From positions 37,613-101,612 of the forward strand of contig CBDCZZ010000001.1 in assembly GCA_965224725.1 (NCBI GenBank): 64,000 nt of DNA, in the 5' to 3' direction. Position numbers and translations under genes: made by a program. A model generated the notes under the pieces. It did not search any database. It was not told the origin of the DNA and saw nothing but the letters and a program-made list of their open reading frames with translations. This stretch comes from Woeseiaceae bacterium (lineage in GTDB: Bacteria > Pseudomonadota > Gammaproteobacteria > Steroidobacterales > Woeseiaceae). Positions within the stretch are counted from its first letter, which is position 1. Each line of letters begins with the position of its first letter. This document shows, piece after piece, positions 6,783 through 30,700 of this stretch.

Positions 6783-6823
6783 CGCACATTCTTCTTCTGT
6801 GAGCGTGTTGAGCTAGGGTATTC

Positions 6824-7732: not shown

Positions 7733-7890
7733 TTGCAGTACGTCCGGCAGTCGAGCTCGTCCACGGTGTTTTCGAGAATGCGGCGACTCAGGTTGCGGTA
7801 CTTCCGCACACGTGTGGTCGGTGTGAACAGCAGCCCCGCAAGCACACGCCAGCGCGATTCGTGCTGTGGCAAACGGGTTGTGGTGTGCAT
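7729..7890 (-). CDS. Small hypothetical protein (53 aa) translationally coupled to the DMT transporter
   Basis: Own translation: MHTTTRLPQHESRWRVLAGLLFTPTTRVRKYRNLSRRILENTVDELDCRTYCK. AAGGAG SD 6 nt upstream. Its TGA overlaps the ATG of the DMT gene (ATGA). It falls below the length cut-off of the ORF track. Confidence 0.4.
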   Translation of the reverse strand: MHTTTRLPQHESRWRVLAGLLFTPTTRVRKYRNLSRRILENTVDELDCRTYCK

Positions 7891-7983
7891 CGTCATCTCC
7901 TTGCTGGTTTGAGCGTGGAGTTGACTCTACGCAAAATCTGCTGATATAACAGATACACTTTTTGACAAATAAGACCTGTACAG

Positions 7984-9453: not shown

Positions 9454-9473
9454 AATCTCAGGGGGTTATAAAA

Positions 9474-10583
9474 ATGAAAACAACTCGACGTACATTCATT
9501 CAGTCTGCAACCGCACTGGGTGTGGCGGCGGCATTGCCCGGCTGCATGTCAGCCGATGAACCCGCGGCGGAAGGCAGCTCCAGCGCTCTCGATATTCTTG
9601 TGCTTGGTGGCACCGGCTTTATCGGCCCGCACGAGATCAACTTCGCGAAATCCCGCGGCCACAAGATCACGATGTTTAATCGCGGCAAGACAGCCCCCGA
9701 TATGTTCCCGGATGTTGAGAACCTGATCGGCGATCGCAACGGTCAGCTCGACTCTCTCAAGGGTCGCGACTGGGACGTCGTTATCGATAACTCGGGCTTT
9801 TTCCCGAAGCATGCGCAGATGTCAGCCGAACTTCTGAACGGTCACGTCGGCAAGTACATGTTCGTGTCCAGCATTTCGGCCTACGGCGAAACGCTGGAAG
9901 TCGGGCAGGACGAGTTCGAAGCGCCTATCGCACAGATGCCGGGACCGATTGACGAGTCCGAGCACATCTATGGACCGACTTACGGTCCGCGCAAAGCACT
10001 CTGTGAGCAGGAAGTCGAAAAAGTATTCGGTGACGATGCGATCATTATTCGTCCCGGAATCATTACGGGCATCGGCGACCCAACCGAGCGTCTGCGTCAC
10101 TGGCTGCGACGCATGGTTGCCGGCAACGAGATTCTTGTGCCGGGGCAGGAAGATCTGCCGGTGCAGTACATCGACGCGCAAGACATGTGCCAGTGGATGG
10201 TGCGCATGCTTGAAGAAGGTAACGGCACTGGTCCCTACAACGCGGTAGGTGCGAAAGACCCGTACATTGCGCGCCCGTTCCTTGAAGGCCTGCGCGACTC
10301 CCTGAATTCCACCTCGCAGCTGACCTGGGTCGACTGGGAGTGGATTCGCGAGCAGACAGAGGAAAACCTGAGATACGGACCCTGGTACGGTGAGGGCCCG
10401 ATCCCGTTCATGCAGGTCAACAATGATCGCGCGATGGCAAGCGGGCTTACCTTCCGACCAATAGCGGATACCGCAAAGGACATGGTTGCGCATCTCGTTG
10501 ACTTCGAAGGCCCGTGGCGTGGCGGCCTCGATCCGGAAACCGAGGCGGAATACCTCGCGAAGTGGCACGCCGAGCAGGAATGA
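9474..10583 (+). CDS. NAD-dependent epimerase/dehydratase (SDR) family protein with Tat signal and lipobox
   Basis: TRRTFIQSATALGVAAALPGC twin-arginine signal followed by LVLGGTGFIGPH Rossmann motif. Confidence 0.85.
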   Translation: MKTTRRTFIQSATALGVAAALPGCMSADEPAAEGSSSALDILVLGGTGFIGPHEINFAKSRGHKITMFNRGKTAPDMFPDVENLIGDRNGQLDSLKGRDWDVVIDNSGFFPKHAQMSAELLNGHVGKYMFVSSISAYGETLEVGQDEFEAPIAQMPGPIDESEHIYGPTYGPRKALCEQEVEKVFGDDAIIIRPGIITGIGDPTERLRHWLRRMVAGNEILVPGQEDLPVQYIDAQDMCQWMVRMLEEGNGTGPYNAVGAKDPYIARPFLEGLRDSLNSTSQLTWVDWEWIREQTEENLRYGPWYGEGPIPFMQVNNDRAMASGLTFRPIADTAKDMVAHLVDFEGPWRGGLDPETEAEYLAKWHAEQE

Positions 10584-11722
10584 CGAACTACCGGGAGCAA
10601 TTCGATCTCCCGAGGGACGTCTGTTACCTGAATGCGTCTTACATGGGGCCTCAACCACGCGTTGTGGTTGAGGCCGCGACCGCGGGCGTCCTGCGGCGTT
10701 CGCAACCCTGGAAAATCATTCCGATCGACTTCTTTACGGACGTCGAGGCGCTGCGCACGCTGTACGCAGCGCAGGTCGGCTGTGCGGCTGACAACATCGC
10801 TATTGTTCCTTCGGCGGGTTACGGCATTGCGTGTGCGACGGCAAATATTCCGCTACAGAGCGGTGACGTCGTGCTCGCAATGCATGAACAGTTTCCGTCG
10901 AACTACTATTCCTGGCAGCGCACTGCACTCGCCAGCGGTGCCGAATTTCATGTAGTCGAAAAGACCGACGGTGAGTCGTGGGCCGACGCGTACTTCGCAG
11001 CGATAGAGCGACTTGGCAAGAAGATAAGGGTCGCGACGCTTGAAGGGCATCATTGGGCATCCGCCGAAACCATTGATCTCGAGCGAATCATTCCTGCGCT
11101 TCGCGATGTCGGTGCGAGGGTGGTTCTCGACCTGACGCAGACTGTCGGCGCGATGCCCGTGGATATCAAGGTGCTGGCGCCGGACTTCATGGTGACGTCC
11201 GGCTACAAGTGGCAATTCTGTCCCTACGGCATTGCGTTCATGTACGTCGACGATGCGTATTTCGATGGTGTGCCGATCGAGGAAGCGTGGATGGCGCGCG
11301 AAGGTGCCGAGGATTTTTCGCGACTTGCCGAGTTCACGGACAATTACCAGTCAGGCGCACGTCGTTACGACGTTAGTGAAAAGTCGAGCTTCTCCAATGT
11401 TGCCGGTGCCAAAGCTGCGCTGCAGCAGCTGGCGGACTGGAACATTGAGAATATCTCGGCGACGCTCGGCGAGACCAATGAGCGAATCGCCACGATTCTA
11501 CAGGGCCACGGATTCGAAGTGGCGGATCCAACGACTCGCGCTCCGCATTTCCAGGGAGCACGTGTGCCGGACACGGATCCCCGCAAGCTCGCGGCCACGC
11601 TAATCGAGAACAACGTCTTCGCCAGCGTGCGGGGCGACTTCCTGCGCGTTGCGCCACACCTGTATACGGATGAGCAGGACCTGGCGCGACTCGATGAGGT
11701 TATCGGAAAGGCTCTGAATTGA
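10580..11722 (+). CDS. Aminotransferase class V family (cysteine desulfurase/kynureninase-like)
   Basis: Start chosen at the ATG that overlaps the upstream stop (ATGA), giving MTNYREQFDLPRDVCYLNASYMGP. SGYKW lysine motif typical of class V PLP enzymes. Confidence 0.85.
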   Translation: MTNYREQFDLPRDVCYLNASYMGPQPRVVVEAATAGVLRRSQPWKIIPIDFFTDVEALRTLYAAQVGCAADNIAIVPSAGYGIACATANIPLQSGDVVLAMHEQFPSNYYSWQRTALASGAEFHVVEKTDGESWADAYFAAIERLGKKIRVATLEGHHWASAETIDLERIIPALRDVGARVVLDLTQTVGAMPVDIKVLAPDFMVTSGYKWQFCPYGIAFMYVDDAYFDGVPIEEAWMAREGAEDFSRLAEFTDNYQSGARRYDVSEKSSFSNVAGAKAALQQLADWNIENISATLGETNERIATILQGHGFEVADPTTRAPHFQGARVPDTDPRKLAATLIENNVFASVRGDFLRVAPHLYTDEQDLARLDEVIGKALN

Positions 11723-16093: not shown

Positions 16094-17338
16094 ATGTCAT
16101 CAGGAGACGATCTCGGCTCGGAAATCACCGAGCTGTGCGCCTACATTTCAGTAGCCACCTACCAGCTGCTCTGCAAGATTCGCGAGTTTGATACTGGGCG
16201 CTACTGGGAAGCGCAGGGCTTTCGTTCGTGTGCCCACTGGATGAATTTTCATTGCGGTTTGGGGATGAATTCTGCGAGGGAGCGATTGCGAGTCGCGTAC
16301 GCGTTGGCGACATTGCCGAAGATCAGCGAGAAGTTTTCGAAAGGGCAACTTAGTTATTCGATCGTGCGGGCCATGACCCGGGTAGCCGATGCCGACAACG
16401 AAGAGTTTCTGGTGATGGTTGCTGAGCATGGAACAGCGAATCACATGGAGCGCCTGGTGCGCCAGTATCGTCGAGCCTGCAAACTACAGAATGAAGACTT
16501 CGCCTACGAGCAGTATCAAACAAGAGAAATGAGCTACCACTACGATGATGATGGCTCCGTGGTCATGAAGGTGAAGATGCCGGCCGAGCGGGGCGAGCTG
16601 GTGATCAAGGCGCTTGAGAAGATGATGGACGAGGACCTTCAGGAAGAGGCCGAGGTCGTCGAAGGCGAGGAAAAGCTGACGGCGAAAACACGTCGCGCTG
16701 ACGCGCTGTTGCATATCGCCGAGGATTACCTGAACGGTGGCGACTCGTCAGCCAGCACAGCGGATCGCTACCAGGTGGTGATCCACAAAACGGAGCACTC
16801 ACAGGAAGTTCAGCATGGCCCACACGTTTCAGCGGAAACGTGCCGCAGAATGTCCTGCGACTGTTCGAAGGTGGAAGTCACGGAAGACGAACACGGTAAA
16901 CCATTAAGTATCGGCAGGAAGTCACGAACCATCCCGCCTGCTATCAAACGCGCACTGGTTGTCCGCGATGGCGGTTGTCGCTTCCCGGGCTGCACCAACT
17001 GTCGTTATGTCGTTGGCCACCACATCCAACACTGGTCGAAAGACGGGGAGACGAGCTTGGATAACCTCGTGCTGCTGTGCGACTTCCACCATCACCTGGT
17101 TCACGAGGGTGGTTTCGATTGCAGGAAGTCCGACGATGGCGAAATTTACTTCGTCGACAAGCGAGATGAGCCGTTGGATGAAAGCTCTAACCCACGACCG
17201 ATCTCAATCGAGAACTCGCTGGCCTGGATGCGCGGCCGATATTCGAAGTTCGACGTTTCAGCGGAAACGTCGGTCAGTGGTTGGAAAGCTGGAGAGAGAA
17301 TGGATACTGCCTATGCGGTTTCGCTGATGTTCAACTGA
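16094..17338 (+). CDS. DUF222 + HNH endonuclease (REP13E12-like family)
   Basis: N-terminal DUF222-like helical region. C-terminal HNH motif CRFPGCTNCRYVVGHHIQHWSKDGETSLDNLVLLCDFHHHLVHEGG. Confidence 0.85.
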   Translation: MSSGDDLGSEITELCAYISVATYQLLCKIREFDTGRYWEAQGFRSCAHWMNFHCGLGMNSARERLRVAYALATLPKISEKFSKGQLSYSIVRAMTRVADADNEEFLVMVAEHGTANHMERLVRQYRRACKLQNEDFAYEQYQTREMSYHYDDDGSVVMKVKMPAERGELVIKALEKMMDEDLQEEAEVVEGEEKLTAKTRRADALLHIAEDYLNGGDSSASTADRYQVVIHKTEHSQEVQHGPHVSAETCRRMSCDCSKVEVTEDEHGKPLSIGRKSRTIPPAIKRALVVRDGGCRFPGCTNCRYVVGHHIQHWSKDGETSLDNLVLLCDFHHHLVHEGGFDCRKSDDGEIYFVDKRDEPLDESSNPRPISIENSLAWMRGRYSKFDVSAETSVSGWKAGERMDTAYAVSLMFN

Positions 17339-21561: not shown

Positions 21562-22398
21562 TTACTGTCGTGCCTCCCAGGCATCGCTGTAGCGACGTAT
21601 GCGCCAGGTACTGAGCTTATCGCCGTTTGAGAACTCGTCGCGACGGGACGTGACCTCCAGCATGGCTTGCCCGATCGACTGCGCGCGTACCGCTGCTCCA
21701 ACCGGGGAGAAGAAACCATACAGCATCTCCTGGCCGAGATGAGATTCCTCGTCGGTCGGGCCGATGTAGTCCGGCCGGTATGCGATGACCTCGAGATTCG
21801 TTCCCTCGGCCAGGCCAAACAGCTTGTTCTCGGCTTCGACCTTCACACGCGCCCACATGGCACTCGAGTCTTCCGATATGTCGCTCGAGCTGACGTAGTG
21901 AAACGCGATTTCGGGGCGACGTGCGATGCGAAGCCATTGCTCTACGAATTGCATCGGAAAATCGATGTGGATAAGCCGGTAATCATCCTCCTCCATACCG
22001 ACAGAGCTGATGCCAATAGCCCAGTAAACGGCGTCGACATTCGAGAGTCGATCGATGATTTTCGAGTAGTCGAGATAGTCCATGTGCTCAGTCACGACGA
22101 GCTTGCCGGTCTTCAGTCCGTCTTCCATGCGCGGGGTAATACGCCGCGTGATGATATGAATCGTTTCAACAGACGGGTCGGACATGGCTGCCTTGAGAAT
22201 GCCATCGCCCGCGGTGCCACTTGCGCCGAATATAGCAATGGTCGGAGTCATTGCTCTCACTCCGTCGTACTCGGGTGCGGTGTTGTCAAAGGTTGCTACG
22301 CGAATCGCGATGACAACGTAGAAGACGAAAAACAGCACGACAGGCGTCAGGAGGATGGTTCTTAAGCGCGGCATCTTCATGGGGCCGCATGTTAGCAT
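21562..22398 (-). CDS. NAD(P)H-binding (NmrA/SDR-like) protein with N-terminal TM helix
   Basis: IAIFGASGTAGDGILKAA Rossmann motif after a hydrophobic N-terminus. The exact start is uncertain (ATG at 22398, 22380 or 22374). Confidence 0.7.
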   Translation of the reverse strand: MLTCGPMKMPRLRTILLTPVVLFFVFYVVIAIRVATFDNTAPEYDGVRAMTPTIAIFGASGTAGDGILKAAMSDPSVETIHIITRRITPRMEDGLKTGKLVVTEHMDYLDYSKIIDRLSNVDAVYWAIGISSVGMEEDDYRLIHIDFPMQFVEQWLRIARRPEIAFHYVSSSDISEDSSAMWARVKVEAENKLFGLAEGTNLEVIAYRPDYIGPTDEESHLGQEMLYGFFSPVGAAVRAQSIGQAMLEVTSRRDEFSNGDKLSTWRIRRYSDAWEARQ

Positions 22399-22405
22399 CG
22401 CTCAC

Positions 22406-22810
22406 GTGAGCAAGCCGCCCGATCAAACCATCGCAGAGAGAATTCGCCACGCGCGTGAGCAGGCACAGATGCCGCCCGCGGAGCTGCGACAGATTCTCAG
22501 ACAGGACTACGGGATCGATTTGTCGAAGACTGGTCTGCACCGTCTTGAGAATGTCGATTCCAAGAATCCCAACCTGAAACTCATCCAGGCGATCGCAAAG
22601 ATCACGCGCGTTTCGCCGAGCTGGATCCTGTTTGGAGAAGGTACGTCATTGCCTGGCGATGAGGTAGGAAGCGCCATTCGTTCGCGCGTTATCGATACGA
22701 TCGAACTGATGATCGGCGCTCTCGACATGTCGTCGAGGCAGGAGTCGACGATCAACAATTGGCTCAAGAGTGTTCGCGAAAATCCACCGAAAAAAATACG
22801 CAAACCCTGA
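22406..22810 (+). CDS. XRE-family helix-turn-helix transcriptional regulator
   Basis: IAERIRHAREQAQMPPAELRQIL...LKLIQAIAKITRVSPSWILFGEG is a classic HTH_3 pattern. GTG start at 22406 is a guess (the ORF is open from 22355). Confidence 0.7.
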   Translation: MSKPPDQTIAERIRHAREQAQMPPAELRQILRQDYGIDLSKTGLHRLENVDSKNPNLKLIQAIAKITRVSPSWILFGEGTSLPGDEVGSAIRSRVIDTIELMIGALDMSSRQESTINNWLKSVRENPPKKIRKP

Positions 22811-22814
22811 TTAT

Positions 22815-22835
22815 GTGAACGTCGTTCACTTTTTC
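22815..22835 (+). terminator. Hairpin GTGAACGTCGTTCAC + T5, likely terminator of the XRE gene (could double as an operator)
   Basis: Perfect 7+1+7 palindrome directly after the stop codon, followed by TTTTT. Confidence 0.4.
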
Positions 22836-22858
22836 GGAACCAATGTTCATCTTAAGTG

Positions 22859-22886
22859 TTGACATGCTTCCTGACGTGCGTATACT
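22859..22886 (+). promoter_or_regulatory. Near-consensus sigma70 promoter (TTGACA - 16 nt - TATACT)
   Basis: TTGACA at 22859-22864 and TATACT at 22881-22886. Confidence 0.5.
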
Positions 22887-22892
22887 CCCGCG

Positions 22893-23139
22893 CACTATGA
22901 AAACTTCCATCAAACAACTTGGCTGGTTATTCGCCGCGCGGTATTGCGCAGACGGCGATGCGCGCCTGTGCGTCCGAGATACGCATATGGGCTCAAGCCT
23001 TATTGATGCGATTCCCACAAATAGCGGGGAACCGATGACGTAGCTTTCCAAGAATGGTTCCTGGAAGGCTCGAACAGATACCTTCCGGGAAAGCTCCAAG
23101 GAGAAACCCCGGCTGGTTTAAACCAACCGGGGTTTTTTT
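22893..23139 (+). ncRNA. Orphan transcription unit of about 245 nt (candidate sRNA or near-leaderless 47-aa peptide)
   Basis: Bounded by the promoter above and a strong intrinsic terminator. The only ORF (ATG 22898, stop 23043, MKTSIKQLGWLFAARYC...) has no SD. Confidence 0.35.
23105..23139 (+). terminator. Rho-independent terminator
   Basis: CCCCGGCTGGTT...AACCAACCGGGG stem (about 10 bp, one mismatch) followed by T7. Confidence 0.75.
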
Positions 23140-23159
23140 ATGCCCCGCGTTAGCTCTTT

Positions 23160-23182
23160 AACAATGCGGATTGTGTAGACGT
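23160..23182. repeat. Left copy of a perfect 23-bp inverted repeat, AACAATGCGGATTGTGTAGACGT
   Basis: The exact reverse complement occurs at 26375-26397. The element contains an internal dyad, ACAAT-GCGG-ATTGT. Confidence 0.9.
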
Positions 23183-24156
23183 TGGGGCAGAGTCTTTCAG
23201 GGGAAAGTCTGCGGCTTCCAGACATGGCTGTGCGCGTTCGCGCCTGCCCCCAACGTAGTAAGAATTCTGGTCTACCGGTTTCGGCCGGGGTCCTTAATAG
23301 CGGCCTGGCGCTGCTAACCGTCGGTAACGGCGGGAAAGGGGCACTACCCATGGTGTCTCGCCGGTGTAATGCCGGTCCGACCAGGCAAGTTCGGCCTCCA
23401 ATGTCCTCGGCTGCGGCCGGGGATAGCGGTAGAGCGATGCGCGGAAGTAGCGAGCCTATGTACCTTCGGGAATACAGGTTCGTGAAAGAACACGTGGTGG
23501 TGCAACCCGCGATACCAACTTCGTGAATCGTGAGAGGTAACGAATAGTGCAGGCAAGTACGAGCTTTGCAAGCGAGTGCGCCTGTGCAGATTTTTGGGGT
23601 TCCGGCGTGCAGCCAGCGTCCTGAAAGTCGGTCAAGTAACCGGCAGGTGAACGACATTCGGCGTGTTGTATTTCGTGGCCCAAAAGGCGACGAAGCGACT
23701 GAGACACGCACGTCGAAATGGGCATTTGTGTTTTTAGCTCAGCATGGCAGAGCAATCGATCGTTAGTCGATGGGTCGCCGGTTCAAATCCGGCATCACAC
23801 ACCGAAACGTAAACGCAAAGACGTGTCTCGGTACAGCCTGAAAATGGCTTAAAGCCGAAGCCTTTTGGCAATTCGGCAGATGAGAGGGCCGCAAGCCCGC
23901 TCATCTTCGGCAACAAGCCGCACGGTTGGGGAGCACCCATTTGGAGCCCGCAAAGCTCACGGTAAGCGCGTTGCTGAATACGGCTGTACGACGAGTGATT
24001 CGCCACACTCCAAAAAAGGCAGTCATGAGCATCTACTGTCGTGCCGGCTTCGGCCGGGCGGCAGTGGACAAGGACGCAACGGCGCCCGGCAGGGCGGTCC
24101 GGTACTCGTACAAAAGGATGCTCGTAAAGCGCTTAGTCTCAGCGCTTTTTTCTTTT
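23183..24156 (+). ncRNA. Candidate large structured RNA (ORF-free, about 0.97 kb) with an embedded tRNA-like domain
   Basis: No credible CDS. Hand-checked helices: 23179-23190 with 23244-23256 (12 bp, 1 bulge); 23698-23708 with 23822-23832 (11 bp, enclosing the tRNA-like element); hairpin 23878-23906; UUCG-capped CCGGC/GCCGG hairpin 24044-24057; terminator-like hairpin plus U-run 24127-24156. Boundaries are approximate. Confidence 0.45.
23728..23801 (+). tRNA. tRNA-like element, anticodon GUU (Asn) by position; degenerate acceptor stem and C33
   Basis: Hand fold: GTGTTTT/TA/GCTC-AGCATGGCA-GAGC/A/ATCGA-TCGTTAG-TCGAT/GGGTC/GCCGG-TTCAAAT-CCGGC/ATCACAC/A. Only 5 of 7 acceptor pairs. C instead of U at position 33. 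No encoded CCA. Confidence 0.5.
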
Positions 24157-24160
24157 CAAT

Positions 24161-24236
24161 GTCGAGCTTAGCTTAATGGTAAAGCCCCTGGTTGTGAGCC
24201 AGGCAGATACCGGTTCGAGTCCGGTCGTTCGACCCA
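24161..24236 (+). tRNA. tRNA-His (GUG) with G-1:C73 and encoded CCA
   Basis: Hand fold: G(-1) TCGAGCT/TA/GCTT-AATGGTA-AAGC/C/CCTGG-TTGTGAG-CCAGG/CAGAT/ACCGG-TTCGAGT-CCGGT/CGTTCGA/C/CCA. The extra 5' G opposite C73 is the His identity hallmark. Confidence 0.85.
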
Positions 24237-24328
24237 CATACCTTAGGCCCGTGTTCGGGCGCGGCGACCAGACCGCAATTCAATGCTGGGAGGCGAAAGC
24301 CCGGGGAGCATCATGCTCTCCGAATTCT

Positions 24329-24404
24329 ACGGCCGTAGCTCAGTGGACAGAGCGTGACTGTGCGAAGGTCAAAGTCGGAGGTTCGAGTCCTCCCGGCCGT
24401 ACCA
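24329..24404 (+). tRNA. tRNA-Arg, anticodon GCG, encoded CCA
   Basis: Hand fold: ACGGCCG/TA/GCTC-AGTGGACA-GAGC/G/TGACT-GTGCGAA-GGTCA/AAGTC/GGAGG-TTCGAGT-CCTCC/CGGCCGT/A/CCA. Perfect 7-bp acceptor stem. G at position 32 and a GCG anticodon are unusual for bacteria. Confidence 0.75.
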
Positions 24405-24411
24405 ATCTTCT

Positions 24412-24485
24412 TCGGTGCTCGTCCAAGGGCAAGACGCGAGACTTTGAATCTCGAAATCGTGGTTCGAGTCCACGGCGCCGATCCA
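24412..24485 (+). tRNA. tRNA-Gln (UUG), encoded CCA
   Basis: Hand fold: TCGGTGC/TC/GTCC..AGAC/G/CGAGA-CTTTGAA-TCTCG/AAAT/CGTGG-TTCGAGT-CCACG/GCGCCGA/T/CCA. U1-A72 and UC at positions 8-9, as in E. coli tRNA-Gln. Only 7 nt after the Arg gene. Confidence 0.8.
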
Positions 24486-24491
24486 TACAAA

Positions 24492-24570
24492 GGCCGTCTG
24501 AAGGGAATCTGGCATACCTACCTGTCTCAGAAACAGGTGCTTCCCGGTTCGACCCCGGGGGCGGCTACCA
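24492..24570 (+). tRNA. tRNA-like gene, anticodon CAG (Leu) but with a short 5-nt variable loop
   Basis: Hand fold: GGCCGTC/TG/..GGAATCTGGCATA../CCTGT-CTCAGAA-ACAGG/TGCTT/CCCGG-TTCGACC-CCGGG/GGCGGCT/A/CCA. Leu-like D-loop and A73. It lacks the class II long variable arm and the D-stem is irregular. Confidence 0.55.
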
Positions 24571-24711
24571 GTTTTGACATCGCGACTGTCATACCGAGGT
24601 TTATCGTATCGGAAAGACTTTGCGGTTCGGGTTCTCTGAATTCCCGTCCGGCACGCCGAAGCTAACCATTGTAACGCGTGTACCAAGTGCTCCGAATGAT
24701 GCACCGCCACC

Positions 24712-24784
24712 TGAAAATTAGCTCAGTGGGTAGAGCATACGAAATGTACTCGTAAAGTCGCTGGTTCGACTCCAGCATTTTCAA
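24712..24784 (+). tRNA. tRNA-like gene, anticodon UGU (Thr) by position, A33, no encoded CCA
   Basis: Hand fold: TGAAAAT/TA/GCTC-AGTGGGTA-GAGC/A/TACGA-AATGTAC-TCGTA/AAGTC/GCTGG-TTCGACT-CCAGC/ATTTTCA/A. All stems are perfect, but the loop AAUGUAC lacks the near-universal U33. Confidence 0.55.
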
Positions 24785-25151
24785 CTGGCCTCAGAAGCCA
24801 CTCAGGAAAAGGCCCATGGCCTGCGGTTCGACTCCGCTCCTGGCAGGGATACTGCCTCAAACCGCAGCCACCTCCAGCGAAAGTTTGCCTGAGACATCCC
24901 CGTCGAAGGTGAACGAGTAGCAGCAACCCGGTTGCCGGTCGACGAGTTGCTCGTCGTGTCCGAATCTCAATCCAGTTTCATTCCGAGCATTTGCGATTCG
25001 TCGCATTCGCTCCGACTGATACCGCATCGACATTCCGGCAGGTCGGACACCGTCTTCCCGCTCCCCGGTTGTGGAGGTGCGCTGCACCAAACTTTTTCCC
25101 GCGTTGCATCTGCGGCGTTTTTTTCTCACCGCGAACTAAAAGGAGGTGATC

Positions 25152-26300
25152 ATGTTCTACATGAAGGCAATTGTGCGTAAGCACGAACGTGCACTCCTGT
25201 TCCGTGACGGTGACTTCGTCAAGTTCATCGAGCCTGGCGTACACCGTTTCGCAACGTTGCTGCACAAGGTAGCGCTGGTCCGTTTCGATATCACGGATCT
25301 CGCGTTCACTCACCCGCTGGAGGACTTTCTCATTGAGAAGTACCCGGAGGACGTGAAGGGTTACTTCGATATCGTCGAAACCGGTACGGATGAGGTTGCC
25401 GTGGTTTACCACGATGACCACATCACGGCCGTGATGGCGCCGACCGAGCGCAAGCTGTTCACCAAGGGTGTCTACGACATCCGCGTTGAACGCTTCGAAG
25501 TCGTCGATAACCTCGACGTCGACAAGCGTCTCGCCAAGCGCCTGGCAACGGTCGCCGATGCACAGGTCAAGGCAATTGCCGCGAAGCTGGTATTCGCAAC
25601 CACGGTACCGGAGGGCCACACGGGTCTCCTGTACGTGGATGGTGAGCTCAAGCGTTCGCTGAACGCCGGCTACCACGCGTTTCTGGCGGTAGACCGTGAC
25701 ATCGACGTTGCCAAATACGACACCCGCGTACAGACGCTCGAGGTATCGGGTCAGGAAATCCTCACCAAGGACAAGGTTGCAGTTCGCATTAACCTGACCG
25801 CGACCTACGAGCTGACTGACGTCGAGAAGGCTGTCCGCGCTGCGCGTGATCCGCTCGATCACCTGTACAAGGAAGTGCAGTTTGCGCTGCGTGGTGCCGT
25901 TGGTACCCGCACTCTCGATGCGCTGCTGGAAGACAAGACGGTTATCGACACGTCGGTAGCTGATCACCTGACGGCACACTTCGAGACGATCGGTATCACG
26001 ATCAAGTCGGTTGGTGTTAAGGACATCATCCTGCCTGGCGATATGAAGGACCTGCTGGGCAAGGTGGTTGAGGCCGAAAAGGCGGCCCAGGCCAACGTCA
26101 TTCGTCGTCGCGAAGAGACCAACGCAACGCGTTCGCTGCTCAACACCGCAAAGGTGATGGAGACGAACTCGGTCGCGCTGCGTCTCAAGGAACTCGAGAC
26201 GCTCGAAAAGATCACCGAGAAGATCGGCAACATTTCGGTCTACGGTGGTCTCGAGTCGGTCCTGACCGATCTCGTTCACCTGAACAAGGGTGAACGTTAA
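25152..26300 (+). CDS. SPFH/band-7 (slipin-like) domain protein without TM helix
   Basis: Strong SD (AAAGGAGGTGATC-ATG). Central SPFH pattern (EVSGQEILTKDKVAVRINLTATYELTD...LRGAVGTRTLDALLEDK) and a coiled-coil C-terminus (VVEAEKAAQANVIRRREE). Confidence 0.85.
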   Translation: MFYMKAIVRKHERALLFRDGDFVKFIEPGVHRFATLLHKVALVRFDITDLAFTHPLEDFLIEKYPEDVKGYFDIVETGTDEVAVVYHDDHITAVMAPTERKLFTKGVYDIRVERFEVVDNLDVDKRLAKRLATVADAQVKAIAAKLVFATTVPEGHTGLLYVDGELKRSLNAGYHAFLAVDRDIDVAKYDTRVQTLEVSGQEILTKDKVAVRINLTATYELTDVEKAVRAARDPLDHLYKEVQFALRGAVGTRTLDALLEDKTVIDTSVADHLTAHFETIGITIKSVGVKDIILPGDMKDLLGKVVEAEKAAQANVIRRREETNATRSLLNTAKVMETNSVALRLKELETLEKITEKIGNISVYGGLESVLTDLVHLNKGER

Positions 26301-26302
26301 GT

Positions 26303-26360
26303 GTAGGAGCGGCTTCAGCCGCGATGCATTTCGCAACTGAAGTTGCTCCTACATCTTTTT
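26303..26360 (+). terminator. Long REP-like hairpin (about 19 bp) + T-run, terminator of the SPFH gene
   Basis: GTAGGAGCGGCTTCAGCCGC...GCAACTGAAGTTGCTCCTAC pairs 26303-26323 with 26332-26352, followed by ATCTTTTT. Confidence 0.7.
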
Positions 26361-26374
26361 CGTCCCTAAGGGAG

Positions 26375-26397
26375 ACGTCTACACAATCCGCATTGTT
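26375..26397. repeat. Right copy (reverse complement) of the 23-bp inverted repeat
   Basis: ACGTCTACACAATCCGCATTGTT is the exact reverse complement of 23160-23182. It lies 15 nt upstream of the HNH start codon. Confidence 0.9.
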
Positions 26398-26412
26398 TCG
26401 GGAGTGGGAACA

Positions 26413-26988
26413 ATGATTGAGAGAATTTTGAAACTGGATATTGGTGGACGCCCGATCGCGTGGATTACCCGCGAGGAGGGCGCCCTGATGTACTGCCGTG
26501 ACCAGGTTGCCTGGGAGGCCGGCATGGAGCACATCGTGCTGCGTGGTGGTATCTCGCGCGTGACCGGCGGTCGCTCGGTGCTCTTCGTATCGACGATCGT
26601 TGCGGCAAACGATGTACACCGCGGGCTGGACCTGCTGAATGACGTGCCGGCGCTGACCAACAGACGCCTGTTCCGTCGCGACAACCACATGTGCCTGTAC
26701 TGCGGCGACTACCTGTACGACTGCGAGCTGACTCGCGACCACGTCGTTCCGGTATCGCGCGGCGGCCCGGACACCTGGGAAAACGTCGTGACCGCATGCC
26801 GAATCTGCAACCACCGCAAGGCAGATCGCCTGCTCGACGAATGCGGCATGAAGCTCTTGGCTGTGCCTTACGTGCCTAACCGCGCGGAGGGCCTGATCCT
26901 CGAGAACCGCCACATCCTGGGAGACCAGATGGAGTTCCTGAGGGGACACGCGAAGCAACGCAGCGATTTGCTGTACACCTATAAGTAA
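26413..26988 (+). CDS. HNH endonuclease with an uncharacterised N-terminal domain
   Basis: CLYCGDYLYDCELTRDHVVPVSRGGPDTWENVVTACRICNHRK is a canonical HNH/zinc motif. Start placed at ATG 26413. Confidence 0.8.
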   Translation: MIERILKLDIGGRPIAWITREEGALMYCRDQVAWEAGMEHIVLRGGISRVTGGRSVLFVSTIVAANDVHRGLDLLNDVPALTNRRLFRRDNHMCLYCGDYLYDCELTRDHVVPVSRGGPDTWENVVTACRICNHRKADRLLDECGMKLLAVPYVPNRAEGLILENRHILGDQMEFLRGHAKQRSDLLYTYK

Positions 26989-27002
26989 AGGAGGATGAAA
27001 CG

Positions 27003-28412
27003 ATGGCGTTTCTCCATGAAGTAGAAAAAGTGTCGGACGCACACTACGTGCTGCCCAGGATCGGTGACATGCGCACCGAGGTGCACGCGTACCTGTCGGA
27101 TACGCTGTTCGCCCAGACGGACGAAGCACTCTGGCGCCAGGCTGCGCAGGCGGCCGCGTACCCGGGTGTTATCGGTCTGTACCTGATGCCGGACACCCAC
27201 CTGGGTTATGGCATTCCGGTTGGCGGCGTTGTCGTCACCGAGGATGTCATCATCCAGGCCGGTTCGGGCTACGACATCTCGTGTGGTGTCGTGTACCTGA
27301 AGGTGCCTGACCTGACGGCGGCTGACGTCGCCGACTGGGACAAGCGTCGTGCGTGGATCAATGACGTCGAGCAGCGTATTGCTACCGGCGTTGGTTCGCA
27401 TCGCCCGAAGCATATGCCGCGCCTGAACGAGTCGAAGATCGAAGACATCTTTCACTACGGTGCCAAGGCCATCGGCGTTCACGCCGATGTCTGCGAGCGT
27501 CAGTACATTGATGTCGACGAGCAGGTACTCGATTCGGAGCGAATCAAGCGTGCGCGCGACAAGGCGTGCCCGCAGATCGGTTCGGTTGGCGGCGGTAACC
27601 ACTTTGTCGAGATGCAGGTCGACAAGCATGACGGCTCGGTGTGGGTAATGATTCACTGCGGCTCGCGCGGCTACGGCTGGCAGACCGCGAACCACTACTT
27701 CTACGCCGGCGCCGAGCTGCGCGGACTCGCGAAAAACCGTCGCGAGGACTCGTGGCTGCGTGTCGACGAGCCACTCGGCAAGGAGTACTGGGCGCACCAC
27801 AACTCGGCAGCAAACTACGCGGTCGCAAACCGCCACATCATTGTGCGCGGTGTGCAGACGGCGCTTCAGAATGTCTACAACGCATCGGCTGACGTCTTCT
27901 TCGAGATCTCGCACAACCTGGTGCAGGAAGAGACGCTCGTGCTGCCGGACGGTACGACCAAGAAGGGCTTTGTTCACCGCAAGGGGGCGACGCGTGCGTT
28001 CCCGGCGGGACACCCCGACCTGGTTGGTACCAAGTGGGAGAAGACCGGTCATCCGTGCCTGGTTCCGGGCTCGATGCTGGATGGTGCTGCCATCCTGTAT
28101 CCGCTCAAGGGAGCCTTCGACACGGGTTGCTCGGTCAACCATGGCTCGGGCCGCGTGATGGCGCGCGGCAAGGCGAAGCGTGAGCTCGCCGAGATGCACG
28201 ACGACATCGATAACGAAATGCGCTACATCAAGCGCACGCTCGGCGGCGTCGAAATTCAGGGCATCGTCGGCAACACGCGTCGCACGCCGCTCGACGAGTG
28301 CGGTCATGTGTACAAGGATCTCGATGAGGTCCTGCGCGTACTGGAGACGGAAGGTATCGCCCGCGTGGCAAACCGACTGTACCCGGTCGCAAACATCAAG
28401 GGCGCCGATTAG
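27003..28412 (+). CDS. rtcB: RNA 3'-phosphate/2',3'-cyclic phosphate - 5'-OH ligase RtcB
   Basis: AGGAGG SD. RtcB signature motifs: GYGIPVGGV, SVGGGNHFVEMQ, IHCGSRGYGWQ, ISHNLV, HRKGATRA, VPGSM, SVNHGSGRVM. Confidence 0.92.
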   Translation: MAFLHEVEKVSDAHYVLPRIGDMRTEVHAYLSDTLFAQTDEALWRQAAQAAAYPGVIGLYLMPDTHLGYGIPVGGVVVTEDVIIQAGSGYDISCGVVYLKVPDLTAADVADWDKRRAWINDVEQRIATGVGSHRPKHMPRLNESKIEDIFHYGAKAIGVHADVCERQYIDVDEQVLDSERIKRARDKACPQIGSVGGGNHFVEMQVDKHDGSVWVMIHCGSRGYGWQTANHYFYAGAELRGLAKNRREDSWLRVDEPLGKEYWAHHNSAANYAVANRHIIVRGVQTALQNVYNASADVFFEISHNLVQEETLVLPDGTTKKGFVHRKGATRAFPAGHPDLVGTKWEKTGHPCLVPGSMLDGAAILYPLKGAFDTGCSVNHGSGRVMARGKAKRELAEMHDDIDNEMRYIKRTLGGVEIQGIVGNTRRTPLDECGHVYKDLDEVLRVLETEGIARVANRLYPVANIKGAD

Positions 28413-28421
28413 GCGCCCTTG
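28397..28421. terminator. Perfect 10-bp GC-rich hairpin (CAAGGGCGCC/GGCGCCCTTG) between convergent genes
   Basis: The stem spans the rtcB stop codon and is followed by a T-rich tract. The convergent gene ends at 28439. Confidence 0.6.
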
Positions 28422-28438
28422 TCTTATCTGTCATCTAT

Positions 28439-29050
28439 TCAGGAAAGCAGCAAGCGGTCCAGTTTCGGCAACCGCGTCTGCCACTCTCGACAACTCCGCG
28501 AAGTCTGGTCACCGAGTATCACTGAAGCTCGAATCGAGCGACTTAGCGCATTTGCATGTAGACGCTGGTAGTAGGGCATCTTCCGCACATAGAACGGCAG
28601 GATTTCTTCGAGCGTCATGTCCGTATCGAGTGTCTCCGCGAACGCATCGTAAAAACGTGCCAGTGCGTCGGTCACCTGGTTTTCGTCGCCAAGATTCTCG
28701 GAGGGCTCGATTGTCCACGTCATGTCGCGTTGCAGCATGCAGGTGCCGGCAAATGCTGTGCGCCGGGCATCCGACCATTCTTCGGGAGCAATCAGACTGA
28801 GTGACCATTGCTCGTCAAACCAGTACAGGTAGTTGGCAACGCCAATCGATGGTTTGTACTTGAAGTGTGCCGACAGGATTAACATCGAAGTGAAAAACTC
28901 GGCCAGCACCTGGTGTCCGGTTTTCGCGGAAACGCCACGTGGCTCGGTGCGATACCAGTCGAGCATGAAGCCGTTCGCACCCTTGCCATCGAGATTGACA
29001 GGCTTGGTCTCTGCGATATCGCTCGATTTGTGGCGTTTCAGGTTTACCAT
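28439..29050 (-). CDS. Hypothetical protein (possibly DUF2452-like; uncertain recollection)
   Basis: Long ORF with genome-typical codon usage. Start uncertain (ATG at 29050, 29062 or 29128). The upstream options overlap the CPXCG gene. Confidence 0.5.
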   Translation of the reverse strand: MVNLKRHKSSDIAETKPVNLDGKGANGFMLDWYRTEPRGVSAKTGHQVLAEFFTSMLILSAHFKYKPSIGVANYLYWFDEQWSLSLIAPEEWSDARRTAFAGTCMLQRDMTWTIEPSENLGDENQVTDALARFYDAFAETLDTDMTLEEILPFYVRKMPYYQRLHANALSRSIRASVILGDQTSRSCREWQTRLPKLDRLLLS

Positions 29051-29316: not shown

Positions 29317-30090
29317 ATGTATACGGATATCCAGTTGCGCGAGATCTTTCACTTCTGCTTCCTGAACAGGTTGCTGAAGACGACTGATATTGAGCTATTC
29401 GTACTCAAGGGTGGCGTCAACCTTCGCTTCTTCTTCCAGAGCCCGCGTTACTCCGAGGACATGGATCTCGATGTTCTTGGCGGCAGTGTCGCAACGCTCA
29501 AAAAGAACGGCTACAAAATACTCAACGACGCGTCCTTCCAGCGCAGCCTCAAGGTCTTCGATATCGACTCGGTCGAAATCAACGATCCACACAAGGCCAA
29601 ACACACCAAAACGACACAGCGCTTTCGCTGTTCCCTGGTCCGTTCGTCCGGGCAGCAATTGCCAACCAAGGTCGAATTCTCACGTCGTGCCGACGAGGTT
29701 CGAGAGCTGACGATTACCGAGCAAGTAGACCCCGGTATCGCGCTCCCTTATCGAAAGCTGGCGTACCCTTGCCGGCATTACAACGGAACCGCGGCCGTTG
29801 CTCAGAAGATTGAGGCGCTGGCCGGCCGCAGCGTGGCGCAGGCGCGCGACGTATTTGATTTGGGCATTCTGCAGGCGGGTGGCCACCTCGCGTCGGCTGC
29901 AGATCAGGACAACTTCCAGGATCTGCCCTTTGCCGCCGCAATCGATGCTCTACTGTCCCTGCACTGGGAAGATTATGAAGGCCAGGTGCTCGAATATCTC
30001 GCGCCAGAGATCCTTGGAGAATTCGGGAGTCGGGACGCTTGGGTAAATCTGCAGAACGAGATCTACGAAGTACTGCTGGCTCATGCTTGA
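29317..30090 (+). CDS. Nucleotidyltransferase AbiEii/AbiGii-family toxin (DUF1814)
   Basis: FVLKGGVNLRFFFQSPRYSEDMDLDV matches the LKGGTAL..SPRFSEDLDF signature of the family. Confidence 0.85.
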   Translation: MYTDIQLREIFHFCFLNRLLKTTDIELFVLKGGVNLRFFFQSPRYSEDMDLDVLGGSVATLKKNGYKILNDASFQRSLKVFDIDSVEINDPHKAKHTKTTQRFRCSLVRSSGQQLPTKVEFSRRADEVRELTITEQVDPGIALPYRKLAYPCRHYNGTAAVAQKIEALAGRSVAQARDVFDLGILQAGGHLASAADQDNFQDLPFAAAIDALLSLHWEDYEGQVLEYLAPEILGEFGSRDAWVNLQNEIYEVLLAHA

Positions 30091-30700
30091 TTTGCTGCAG
30101 AAACCGGACTTTGTCGTATTCACGACTCGCGATGCCGCTGTTGCCGACGGCGTATCAGTTTCAGCTGCATCGAGAAGACTGACGCGAATTGCCGAAGGTG
30201 GGGCGATCAAACGAGTTACCAAGGGCGTTTGGGCAAATACACAGCACCCACACTTTCATCCCCTGTCCTGCGTACCATACTTGCTGGGGAAAGAGCAGGG
30301 ATACGTATCATTCCTCTCTGCATTGCACCTGCATGCAGCGTTGTCGCAGATTCCTGCCGTTATGATGGTCGCCACAACTGGTCATGGCCGAAAGCTCGAT
30401 TCTCCAGTTGGCAGGTTTGAGTTTTTCCGGGTCAAGCCGGAACTTATGCGTGATGGCGTTGCGTGGTCAGATACCCGGCAGCCATACCTGATGGCGACTC
30501 CGGAAAAAGCCTTGTTGGACGTCTTGTACCTTTCGACAAGAAAAAAGCGTCGCTTCTCTCGATTACCGGAGCTCATCTTGAGCGATAGCGGATTTCGGGT
30601 AACGGAGTTCAGGCGCCTGCTTAAGTCCTTGCCATACTCCAAGCGGGTACGTTCAGCGATCAATTCCAGGTGGGAAGGCCTGGCGCCGCAGATTAGCTGA
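30083..30700 (+). CDS. AbiEi-like antitoxin / wHTH regulator
   Basis: N-terminal wHTH pattern FTTRDAAVADGVSVSAASRRLTRIAEGGAIKRVTKGVWAN. Overlaps the upstream toxin gene by 8 nt. Confidence 0.7.
   Translation: MLDLLQKPDFVVFTTRDAAVADGVSVSAASRRLTRIAEGGAIKRVTKGVWANTQHPHFHPLSCVPYLLGKEQGYVSFLSALHLHAALSQIPAVMMVATTGHGRKLDSPVGRFEFFRVKPELMRDGVAWSDTRQPYLMATPEKALLDVLYLSTRKKRRFSRLPELILSDSGFRVTEFRRLLKSLPYSKRVRSAINSRWEGLAPQIS

Follow-up and report, generated by a model that had tools for sequence, protein, structure and literature searches.

Burroughs and Aravind (2016) placed a Band-7 protein and a tRNA-like RNA, the b7a-tRNA, beside the RNA ligase RtcB, and these parts have been proposed to form an RNA-repair system, as described in 10.1101/312249. 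In P. aeruginosa, PaFlo8 is located in the rtc locus (PMC13086221). In Anabaena, a tRNA L-array (a long same-strand run of tRNA genes) responds to translation inhibitors together with rtcB, HNH genes and a slipin gene, all of them induced under the repressor TrcR (PMC8421152, PMC10272220). Published L-arrays are supernumerary and horizontally transferred, hold up to 43 tRNAs, and their HNH proteins are treated as homing endonucleases (PMC8421152). The RNA GOLLD has a variable 5' region, is typically found in phages and prophages near tRNA islands and forms a 14-mer RNA cage (PMC12286853); in Mycobacterium, GOLLD lies within tRNA arrays, with a pseudo-tRNA inside GOLLD and an HNH gene nearby (PMC6582537). 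A 2026 review gives the role of GOLLD as unknown and offers no more than an 'inhibited storage' idea for the embedded tRNA. In Salmonella, the rtcBA operon responds to damaged tRNAs (PMC7790460). Here we describe a cassette at 22.8-28.4 kb of a 64,000-nucleotide stretch of a Woeseiaceae bacterium genome (contig CBDCZZ010000001.1, positions 37,613 to 101,612; the whole stretch is called the window, and coordinates below are window positions) that joins two published modules, a tRNA L-array with an HNH gene and a Band-7/tRNA-like RNA/RtcB group; each part is of a known kind.

We consider it probable that the cassette is one inducible operon of ~5.5 kb that fuses these two modules. The first is most likely a cut-down, horizontally spread tRNA array with four tRNAs, the HNH gene of the array and a GOLLD RNA that contains a tRNA-like insert, and the second is most likely an RNA-repair system made of a Band-7/SPFH protein, a tRNA-like RNA and RtcB. 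We know of no experimental evidence for any member of the Band-7/b7a-tRNA/RtcB system. Leaving aside the texts of Burroughs and Aravind (2016) and Morgado (2020), we found no report of the union of these modules with GOLLD, an extended band-7 RNA and leader/boxA control, and no paper that names GOLLD together with RtcB. A preliminary description of the window had taken the combination of SPFH, HNH, RtcB and tRNAs or a large RNA to be uncharacterised in function as far as it knew; comparative genomics already knows the combination. The band-7/RtcB association that it mentioned is real (10.1101/312249; PaFlo8 in the rtc locus, PMC13086221), and its pairing of spare tRNAs with rtcB has a counterpart in the Anabaena arrays that are co-regulated with rtcB, HNH and slipin genes (PMC8421152, PMC10272220). 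As a whole its interpretation is partly supported: the linkage of the parts recurs, but the identity of the large RNA, the class of two of the tRNA-type elements and the role of the HNH protein have to be revised.

As in the Band-7/b7a-tRNA/RtcB system, the window holds a tRNA-like gene, an SPFH gene and rtcB in that order on one strand. Unlike in that system as summarised in 10.1101/312249, the tRNA-like module here belongs to a ~550-nt covarying RNA, which also contains a rod of ~220 nt and a second, T-arm-like minihelix; the operon has an array HNH gene, spare tRNAs and GOLLD inserted in it, and control appears to lie with an XRE-like protein and a leader peptide rather than with RtcR. The cassette shares with the Anabaena trn operon and TrcR regulon the CCA-encoding tRNAs, an array-tied HNH gene, RtcB and a slipin, and in both cases repressor-type sites (here operator-like repeats) overlap or adjoin the promoter. 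It differs from the dispersed TrcR regulon in that all parts are in one physical locus, and from the Anabaena L-array in that it holds four tRNAs, with up to 28 in relatives of the window. As in the Salmonella rsr-yrlBA-rtcBA operon, RtcB is accompanied by a putative scaffold and a structured RNA that mimics tRNA (PMC7790460, 10.1101/312249); the Salmonella operon is stress-induced, and the likeness extends to the window operon by prediction. However, the cassette has no Ro60/TROVE protein, RtcA or RtcR: its operon proteins are SPFH, HNH and RtcB only, SPFH takes the place of Ro60, and the sequence of the RNA is unrelated to Y RNA.

Recurrence and protein content of the cassette

With the SPFH protein as query against one genome per GTDB species we found 444 relatives, and we took the best 80 of these 444, together with three weak matches in IMG/VR, as 83 SPFH-anchored loci. 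The nearest relatives among the best 80 of 444 are Woeseiaceae metagenome-assembled genomes with up to 87% SPFH identity. Five or more tRNAs are present in 39/83 loci, an HNH gene in 42/83, the GOLLD 5' region in 28/83, an exact boxA in 23/83, an XRE-like gene directly 5' of the cassette in 22/83 and a complete GOLLD in 17/83. An RtcB, counted if it lies within 10 kb of SPFH, is present in 35/83, and many of the 83 loci are cut by contig ends. In loci with arrays we found an enrichment of the HNH gene, of boxA, of GOLLD and of the clade of the 469-aa RtcB (Fisher p 2e-4 to 1.5e-10). The typical order is an XRE-like gene, leader, boxA, tRNAs, tRNA-Ala, GOLLD, tRNA-Asp and more tRNAs, followed by the b7a RNA, a small open reading frame (ORF), SPFH, tRNAs, HNH and RtcB, and this order of parts is conserved in dozens of Woeseiaceae-like and other gammaproteobacterial genomes. 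The window carries a reduced version, without the tRNAs before GOLLD and without the small ORF. Minimal loci contain only a tRNA-like gene and SPFH, with or without an RtcB of a different clade (27-29% identity), and because these parts occur alone we read the cassette as a fusion of two modules. Thus, the linkage of SPFH, HNH, RtcB and tRNAs that the preliminary description had singled out is recurrent rather than a chance neighbourhood.

These data bear on the possibility that an ordinary housekeeping tRNA operon lies by chance beside an unrelated SPFH-HNH-RtcB cluster. The four array tRNAs do look functional (U33, A37, an encoded CCA, and G-1 in tRNA-His) and the flanking genes are ordinary chromosomal genes, as a housekeeping operon would have it. 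However, close relatives have anything from 1 to 28 tRNAs at the same position, with the non-tRNA elements kept in register, none of five flanking genes is conserved beside the cassette even at 87% SPFH identity, a tRNA-like gene is tied to SPFH in 72/83 loci, and the tRNA-Leu is non-canonical. Published L-arrays, moreover, are supernumerary and horizontally transferred (PMC8421152). We therefore regard a housekeeping operon as very improbable here and return to the fusion of two modules.

The first protein gene after the RNAs encodes a soluble SPFH/stomatin-like protein of 382 aa (25152..26300, + strand, as are all cassette features given below; Band_7 E=4.7e-31) from a family of >7,900 homologues annotated as slipin. 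The protein has no transmembrane segment and no 19-residue hydrophobic window above 1.3, in agreement with the preliminary description, whose HNH, RtcB, upstream XRE and downstream AbiE calls are also confirmed by profile matches, the XRE call weakly. An AlphaFold2 (AF2) model (pLDDT 77) has a beta-rich N-terminal part of 146 residues, an SPFH fold and a 65-residue helix; the N-terminal 150 residues modelled alone reach a pLDDT of 53 only. In Foldseek, the closest solved structures are stomatin and HflK (E=5e-15 and below), and further matches include the cage-forming HflK/C, erlin and prohibitin, with the major vault protein (MVP) as a weaker match. As in the eukaryotic vault, in which MVP with its SPFH-like shoulder is accompanied by vault RNA and the TROVE-domain protein TEP1, a soluble SPFH-fold protein is here encoded beside a structured RNA, and the modelled protein would share with MVP its N-terminal beta-rich domains and long C-terminal helix. 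This likeness is an analogy only, with Foldseek TM-scores of about 0.38 and a window SPFH known from its gene and a model.

The HNH endonuclease gene follows (26404..26988, with a possible alternative ATG start at 26413; HNH_5 E=2.9e-15). It is present in 34/39 array loci as compared to 8/44 non-array loci (p=1.5e-10). Full-length homologues with about 40% identity are found on megaplasmids of Methylibium, Polaromonas, Variovorax and Burkholderia. Over the HNH domain, identity to a protein annotated as an HNH endonuclease on a plasmid of Nostoc PCC 7120 (presumably all8564) is 52%, and Mycolicibacterium plasmids carry matches to the domain as well. This HNH marks tRNA arrays in at least three phyla. 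On the three Methylibium and Mycolicibacterium plasmids that we inspected, the HNH gene is embedded among 17, 27 and 25 tRNAs, with no RtcB or SPFH annotated or detected within 12-15 kb and no GOLLD detected in these arrays. Because the HNH gene tracks arrays across phyla and sits in arrays that lack RtcB and SPFH, it is more likely the array's own endonuclease than a partner of RtcB, the possible role that the preliminary description had given it.

The last gene encodes an RtcB RNA ligase of 469 aa and of the archaeal/eukaryal-length type (27003..28412; Pfam RtcB E=5.3e-88) that matches P. horikoshii and human RtcB over its full length and belongs to a 90%-identity cluster of 159 metagenomic members. 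By eye, its translation contains the motifs DxxC, GGGNHF, HCGSRG, SHN and NHGSGR, which have metal-binding and guanylylation roles in RtcB. An intrinsic terminator with a 10-bp stem (8 GC) and a T-rich tail closes the operon (28397..28431; 28397-28421 in the terminator scan). Across cassette loci RtcB is 86-94% identical, SPFH 57-87% and HNH 65-87%, and RtcB thus diverges far more slowly than the other two proteins.

On the viral side of the survey, one 94-kb predicted viral contig (L081, IMGVR_UViG_3300007072_000340) has, at 4887-11077, 36 tRNAs, an HNH-domain match and a tRNA-like gene 465 nt 5' of an SPFH homologue (36% identity); nothing in it reaches the gathering score of GOLLD. Around RtcB homologues on viral contigs we found neither tRNA arrays nor GOLLD or SPFH, and the linkage on which the preliminary description had built its putative counter-ribotoxin role is thus not seen there.

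Structured RNAs and tRNAs of the cassette

The preliminary description had noticed a hairpin-rich RNA of ~1 kb; this RNA is real and structured, but was not recognised there as GOLLD. In a permissive Rfam scan of 22700-25250, we found that it matches GOLLD (RF02032) at 23656-24145 with 147.0 bits (E=1.7e-40) over model positions 1-416 of 416, and no RNA family other than GOLLD and tRNA was found in this interval. The score lies 3 bits under the curated Rfam gathering score of 150; orthologous copies exceed the gathering score (L048 155.8, L016 154.9 and L056 150.7 bits), and nhmmer aligns them with the copy in the window at E=1e-19 to 1e-65. GOLLD has a total size of about 890 nt (23260-24148) and consists of a lineage-specific 5' region (23260..23655; nhmmer, RNAalifold) and a conserved 3' domain with a terminal hairpin and T-run at its end (23656..24148; RF02032). 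An intrinsic-terminator-like hairpin (24126-24148; terminator scan) closes the RNA, and tRNA-His begins 14 nt after the GOLLD 3' hairpin. The 5' region matches relatives with nhmmer E-values down to 3e-74 and is preceded there by tRNA-Ala; of the 120 pairs that RNAalifold predicts on 15 loci, 65 show compensatory changes. Its fold and conservation fit the variable 5' region described for GOLLD (PMC12286853).

A tRNA-like module ('Asn-GTT', 23728..23803; ARAGORN, Rfam) lies as an insert within the GOLLD linker. Its acceptor stem contains two mismatches, C33 replaces U33, and a CCA is absent. In 15 relatives, GOLLD with an embedded module stands among tRNAs in the same arrangement, and the anticodon at the same position varies between TCT, CCA, CCT, AGC, TAG, CCG and forms of 2 or 4 nt. 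The window copy thus resembles described GOLLD RNAs (RF02032; Weinberg 2009; PMC6582537, PMC12286853) in its full-length 3' domain, variable structured 5' region and ~890-nt size, and it resembles the GOLLD of Mycobacterium arrays in its position inside a tRNA array, its tRNA-like linker insert and the nearby HNH gene (PMC6582537). Unlike classical GOLLD, it is found in a chromosomal, non-prophage setting in marine Gammaproteobacteria and is apparently co-transcribed with the SPFH/RtcB module. The 14-mer cage was seen for GOLLD from elsewhere (PMC12286853), and the window GOLLD is known from sequence alone.

In several loci (L001, L004, L011, L018, L021, L025, L028, L032, L034, L036 and L043) the GOLLD 5' region is present with no detectable 3' domain, and it may persist, or act, alone. 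A blastn search of GOLLD against phage and plasmid records returned tRNA genes only, via the embedded module. A degenerate DNA pattern drawn up for the 3' end of GOLLD hit none of the known copies and was set aside.

The second large RNA lies between the array tRNAs and the SPFH gene. It contains a tRNA-like module ('Thr-TGT', 24712..24785; ARAGORN, Rfam) with A33 and no CCA, 367 nt 5' of the SPFH start. In 72/83 loci a tRNA-like gene is found 300-700 nt 5' of the SPFH start. These upstream genes have >30 'anticodons', including AAA, AGA, ATA, ATT, TTA and forms of 2 or 4 nt, and a CCA end is present in 8/73 of them. The module is the b7a-tRNA of Burroughs and Aravind (2016), as that RNA is described in 10.1101/312249. 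We found that it is one module within a covarying RNA of ~550 nt (24571-25125). On its 5' side there is a conserved element (24571..24711; 20 loci) with hairpins at 24623-24650 and 24651-24681. On its 3' side an extension supported by covariation (24786..25085) consists of a covarying hairpin (24786-24800), a further hairpin (24810-24822), an invariant T-arm-like minihelix GCGGTTCGAnTCCGC (24823-24837) and the ~220-nt rod (24864-25085), all located in an alignment of the band-7-associated RNA from 24 loci (A2).

To quantify the covariation, we compared the A2 structure (24571-25160; 96 pairs) with controls in which the pairing partners were slid. In the observed structure 93.9% of cells are paired as compared to 32-42% in the slid controls, and 58 pairs have compensatory changes as compared to 18-28; none of the shuffles reached the observed values (0/500). 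Helices 1-3 are 94-100% paired. The structured leader that the preliminary description had drawn at 24786-25151 is thus borne out by strong covariation. We built a covariance model (R1) from the cloverleaf, the hairpin and the minihelix; it finds this composite with 79-141 bits in 28 loci outside its training set, whereas a pair of neighbouring ordinary tRNAs reaches about 78 bits at most. Because R1 does not tell the two apart below ~78 bits, the minimal systems of Arenimonas, Neisseria and Azotimanducaceae are ambiguous. A terminator-like hairpin (25101..25125; 25101-25118 in the terminator scan) stands directly 5' of the SPFH ribosome-binding site; relatives differ in its sequence, and three loci lack it.

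Between the b7a RNA and SPFH, most relatives (L002, L004, L016 and others) have an extra ORF of ~45-55 codons (A2 columns 740-900) with a strong ribosome-binding site, AAAGGAGGTGATC, which is absent from the window. In some public gene calls this ORF is fused to SPFH (entries of 427-428 aa), and the Anabaena pair of alr0739 and the slipin gene alr0740, in the TrcR regulon, may match the small ORF-SPFH pair.

ARAGORN finds six + strand tRNA-type genes in 22811-25151 and none elsewhere in the 64 kb, and the Rfam tRNA model confirms five of the six at gathering score, with the Leu gene missed. The preliminary description was right about the number, but two of the six are the tRNA-like modules with unconstrained anticodons and not spare tRNAs. 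Only four look like decoding tRNAs: tRNA-His-GTG (24162-24236), tRNA-Arg-GCG (24329-24404) and tRNA-Gln-TTG (24412-24485), each found by ARAGORN and Rfam, and an atypical tRNA-Leu-CAG (24492-24570; ARAGORN, under the Rfam gathering score). All four have U33, A37 and an encoded CCA, and the sequence of tRNA-His reads G-1 and C73. Over all loci, array tRNAs have a CCA end in 511/581 cases and U33 in 532/581. The window tRNA-Leu is 79 nt long with A73 and CCA and has no long variable arm; it folds with an acceptor stem of 8 bp, a D stem of 3 bp, an anticodon stem of 6 bp and a T stem of 4 bp. The window has four array tRNAs and two tRNA-like modules and does not hold the long same-strand tRNA run that defines an L-array, and the homologous position in relatives holds 10-28 tRNAs; the window array is best described as a reduced derivative of a long tRNA array. 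The variable tRNA content and the unconserved flanks are consistent with a supernumerary, horizontally acquired array.

The short arm of tRNA-Leu is common in related arrays. In L001-L067, 66/96 tRNA-Leu genes are 77-79 nt long without a long variable arm, and these cover every Leu anticodon (CAG, TAG, TAA, CAA, GAG), while Ser and Tyr genes of the same arrays retain the long arm. In the window, the His-Arg spacer (24237-24328) measures 92 nt as compared to spacers of 6-8 nt among Arg, Gln and Leu.

Control region and operon layout

The preliminary description held that 22811-25151 has no credible coding sequence. There is indeed no long gene, but a conserved leader ORF is present, and it lies in a control region that we aligned from 18 related loci (A1). 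The region begins after the gene of a DicA/XRE-like helix-turn-helix (HTH) regulator of 151 aa (22355..22810), the presumed operon repressor (Pfam HTH_3 E=0.004; NCBIfam DicA E=2.8e-6, under the cut-off). Operator-like repeats (GTGAAC-GTC-GTTCAC, GGAAC, GTTCAT; 22815..22853) touch the -35 hexamer of a sigma-70-type promoter (TTGACA-16-TATACT, 22859..22886) that matches 11/12 consensus positions and is the sole promoter-like site within 22300-28600. The half-sites GTTC, GAAC and GTnCA are unchanged across A1, and both hexamers are invariant in 18/18 loci. A 2-mismatch scan of the window, with a pattern whose spacing was one base too long, found no second comparable site.

A leaderless leader ORF of 48 codons (MKTSIKQLGW...SGEPMT-stop, 22897..23043) starts with an invariant ATG 11 nt 3' of the -10 hexamer. 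It is open in 18/18 loci, with lengths of 48-63 codons, indels that are all multiples of three (9, 12, 21 and 24 nt) and a conserved C-terminus (SGEPMT-stop); of the competing frames, one closes immediately and the third is usually shorter. In the final codons GGGGAACCGATGACnTAG (23023-23043; A1 columns 262-283) the nucleotides are near-invariant, and because this includes the wobble positions it suggests a constraint on the RNA or on the nascent peptide. The ORF is followed by a candidate attenuator (23044..23140; terminator scan, RNAalifold on 14 loci) with alternative pairing of CCTTCC, GGAAGG and CCTTCC and an intrinsic terminator with a T-run (23102-23140; 23113-23140 in the terminator scan). 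Covariation support for the attenuator is slight because the sequence is nearly invariant. Weak Rfam matches to His_leader, PyrR and NsiR1 at 23040-23141 were rejected, as the terminator hairpin alone explains them. The promoter-terminator unit that the preliminary description had proposed thus corresponds to the promoter at 22859-22886 and the intrinsic terminator that ends at 23140.

Beyond the terminator we found an rrn-type boxA, GCTCTTTAACAA (23153-23164), with a GT-rich boxC-like tract (together 23153..23180). The consensus GCUCUUUAACAA is matched exactly, 3' of the promoter; the exact 12-mer occurs once in the window, where 0.13 occurrences are expected even with one mismatch allowed. 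We take this 12-mer to be the E. coli rrn boxA consensus, which is bound by NusB/NusE. In 23/83 loci an exact copy, one each, heads the array. A leader stem GTTGGGGCAG...CTGCCCCCAAC that encloses two hairpins (23181..23254) is conserved between boxA and the first array tRNA in about 20 loci. Outside the SPFH-anchored loci, plasmid RPME01 of Methylibium petroleiphilum PM1 (L091) has an exact boxA at 7144-7155, 50 nt before the first of 17 tRNAs, in an array that also holds the homologous HNH gene, and boxA-led tRNA arrays may be general.

In our reading, the control region would combine a promoter under operator control with a leaderless leader-peptide attenuator and a signal for antitermination. 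It resembles an rrn antitermination leader in that an exact 12-nt boxA lies 3' of the promoter of a long untranslated transcript, and it resembles leader-peptide attenuators (trp, his, erm, cat) in that a short ORF lies directly 5' of an intrinsic terminator. In contrast to both, the elements here head a tRNA array/GOLLD/repair operon, and, unlike the leader ORFs of such attenuators, the one in the window is leaderless and lacks a series of codons for any single amino acid. The Anabaena L-array paper (PMC8421152) makes no mention of a leader ORF, terminator, boxA or antitermination. Because all parts lie on one strand with one promoter-like site in 6.3 kb, because boxA heads the array, and because the structured RNA runs up to the SPFH ribosome-binding site and leaves no space for a promoter, a single transcription unit is the reading we favour. 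The layout of promoter, operator-like repeats, leader, terminator and boxA therefore points to one operon that runs through SPFH, HNH and RtcB.

Origin, possible function and meaning of the operon

The flanks of the cassette are chromosomal and include genes for a penicillin amidase, an enolase-superfamily enzyme, an extracytoplasmic function (ECF) sigma/anti-sigma pair, peptidases and a decarboxylase. The 20 flanking ORFs that we scanned at 16-39 kb are metabolic, regulatory or toxin-antitoxin genes, with no phage structural, integrase or transposase genes among them, in line with the lack of integrases and transposases noted in the preliminary description. Downstream of the cassette there is a convergent DUF2452 gene and then an AbiEii/AbiEi pair. 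The flanks are unconserved even in the relative with 87% SPFH identity: of five window flanking genes tested, none is found beside the cassette in relatives, save one hypothetical gene in L001, and the AbiE pair is not found beside the cassette in any related locus (83 loci). Within the pair the AbiEii toxin gene precedes AbiEi with an 8-nt overlap (29317-30700), the reverse of the usual order. On the other side of the cassette, a DUF222 and HNH gene (16094-17338) lies in a patch with a GC content of 0.51-0.54 as compared to about 0.58 and may be a separate mobile remnant.

These flanks have to be set against the idea that the cassette is a remnant of a prophage or mobile element, in which the tRNA island, GOLLD and RtcB would help a phage to counter the anticodon nucleases of its host. 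Phages and prophages are the classical home of GOLLD, near tRNA islands (PMC12286853), arrays with HNH homologues are carried by conjugative or large plasmids, contig L081 combines 36 tRNAs with HNH, a tRNA-like gene and SPFH, and here the flanks are unconserved among relatives with an AbiE pair next door. Yet no phage structural, integrase or transposase gene was found in the 20 flanking ORFs, and the GC content of the cassette is not distinct from its flanks. Among 50,697 phage genome records we found no member of the SPFH family, and IMG/VR gave three weak matches, as compared to 444 matches in bacterial genomes, many on Mb-scale chromosomes; arrays, GOLLD and SPFH are missing from the viral RtcB loci. 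A host-type repressor and an attenuator would also be more in keeping with a domesticated stress operon. We consider a prophage remnant unlikely, and a domesticated, stress-inducible operon is the best-supported reading, to the extent that the comparison with Anabaena can carry it.

The tRNA-like modules and the AbiE pair could instead suggest an anti-phage defence or toxin-type system, in which the HNH protein would be the effector, SPFH a sensor or scaffold, the tRNA-like modules baits, and RtcB a limit on self-damage. SPFH proteins are present in some defence contexts, models of PtuB and of restriction-type HNH proteins give weak matches to the HNH domain, and the anticodon loops of both tRNA-like modules are unconstrained. 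However, PADLOC has no model that matches SPFH or RtcB, and its HNH matches span the HNH domain only; the HNH gene goes with tRNA arrays even where these lack both SPFH and RtcB; the AbiE pair shows no conserved link to the cassette; and the minimal system of tRNA-like gene, SPFH and RtcB has no nuclease. This makes a defence system a decidedly poor candidate, and we return to an operon for RNA repair and tRNA supply.

Several observations weigh against that operon as we have drawn it. The operon structure, XRE-like repression and attenuation are here known from the DNA alone, the HTH assignment of the regulator is weak, RNAalifold on 14 loci identified no antiterminator that competes with the terminator stem, and a terminator-like hairpin stands just 5' of the SPFH gene. 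With four tRNAs only, the spare tRNA supply is thin. TrcR is a ribbon-helix-helix protein, whereas the window regulator appears to be of the HTH type and is unrelated; because the regulators are unrelated, the parallel with Anabaena is one of logic and not of homology. The other parts are missing from viral RtcB loci and from HNH-bearing arrays on plasmids of actinobacteria. Our survey took SPFH as its anchor, with the frequency of GOLLD or RtcB without the other parts outside its scope, and for this reason the link between GOLLD and repair may be no more than a lineage-specific fusion.

In the mechanism we propose, the XRE-like regulator would keep the promoter off, and translation of the leader ORF would set read-through of the terminator, so that expression could follow the state of the translation apparatus. 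The boxA would then load Nus factors, which could allow RNA polymerase to cross 2 kb of untranslated, hairpin-rich RNA and reach the three protein genes. Once expressed, the operon would supply extra tRNAs, and RtcB would reseal tRNA or rRNA cut to 2',3'-cyclic-phosphate and 5'-OH ends. A soluble SPFH oligomer together with the tRNA-like RNA might act as scaffold or cofactor, and the HNH protein is probably the homing nuclease of the array and not a repair factor. Because of homology and the Anabaena precedent, RNA repair and tRNA supply under translational stress are the likely function.

A bolder reading takes GOLLD itself as a working part of an RNA-damage response. The tRNA-like modules would be baits, decoys or sensors for anticodon nucleases, or stored substrates, and RNA and SPFH cages would confine damaged RNA for RtcB. 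This reading draws on the tRNA-like module with a free-to-vary anticodon loop that both large RNAs display, on their co-production with a soluble SPFH protein and RtcB, and on control that apparently reads the state of translation. We hold it to be doubtful, but, if true, it would give GOLLD a first known function, which has been lacking since 2009 although its cage structure was solved in 2025.

Taken together, these data provide a concrete setting, chromosomal and outside prophages in dozens of marine gammaproteobacterial genomes, for a possible role of GOLLD in translational stress or RNA repair. They place the b7a-tRNA as only one module of a far larger covarying RNA. The leader peptide, terminator and boxA that head these arrays suggest how long untranslated operons may be switched on and read through.

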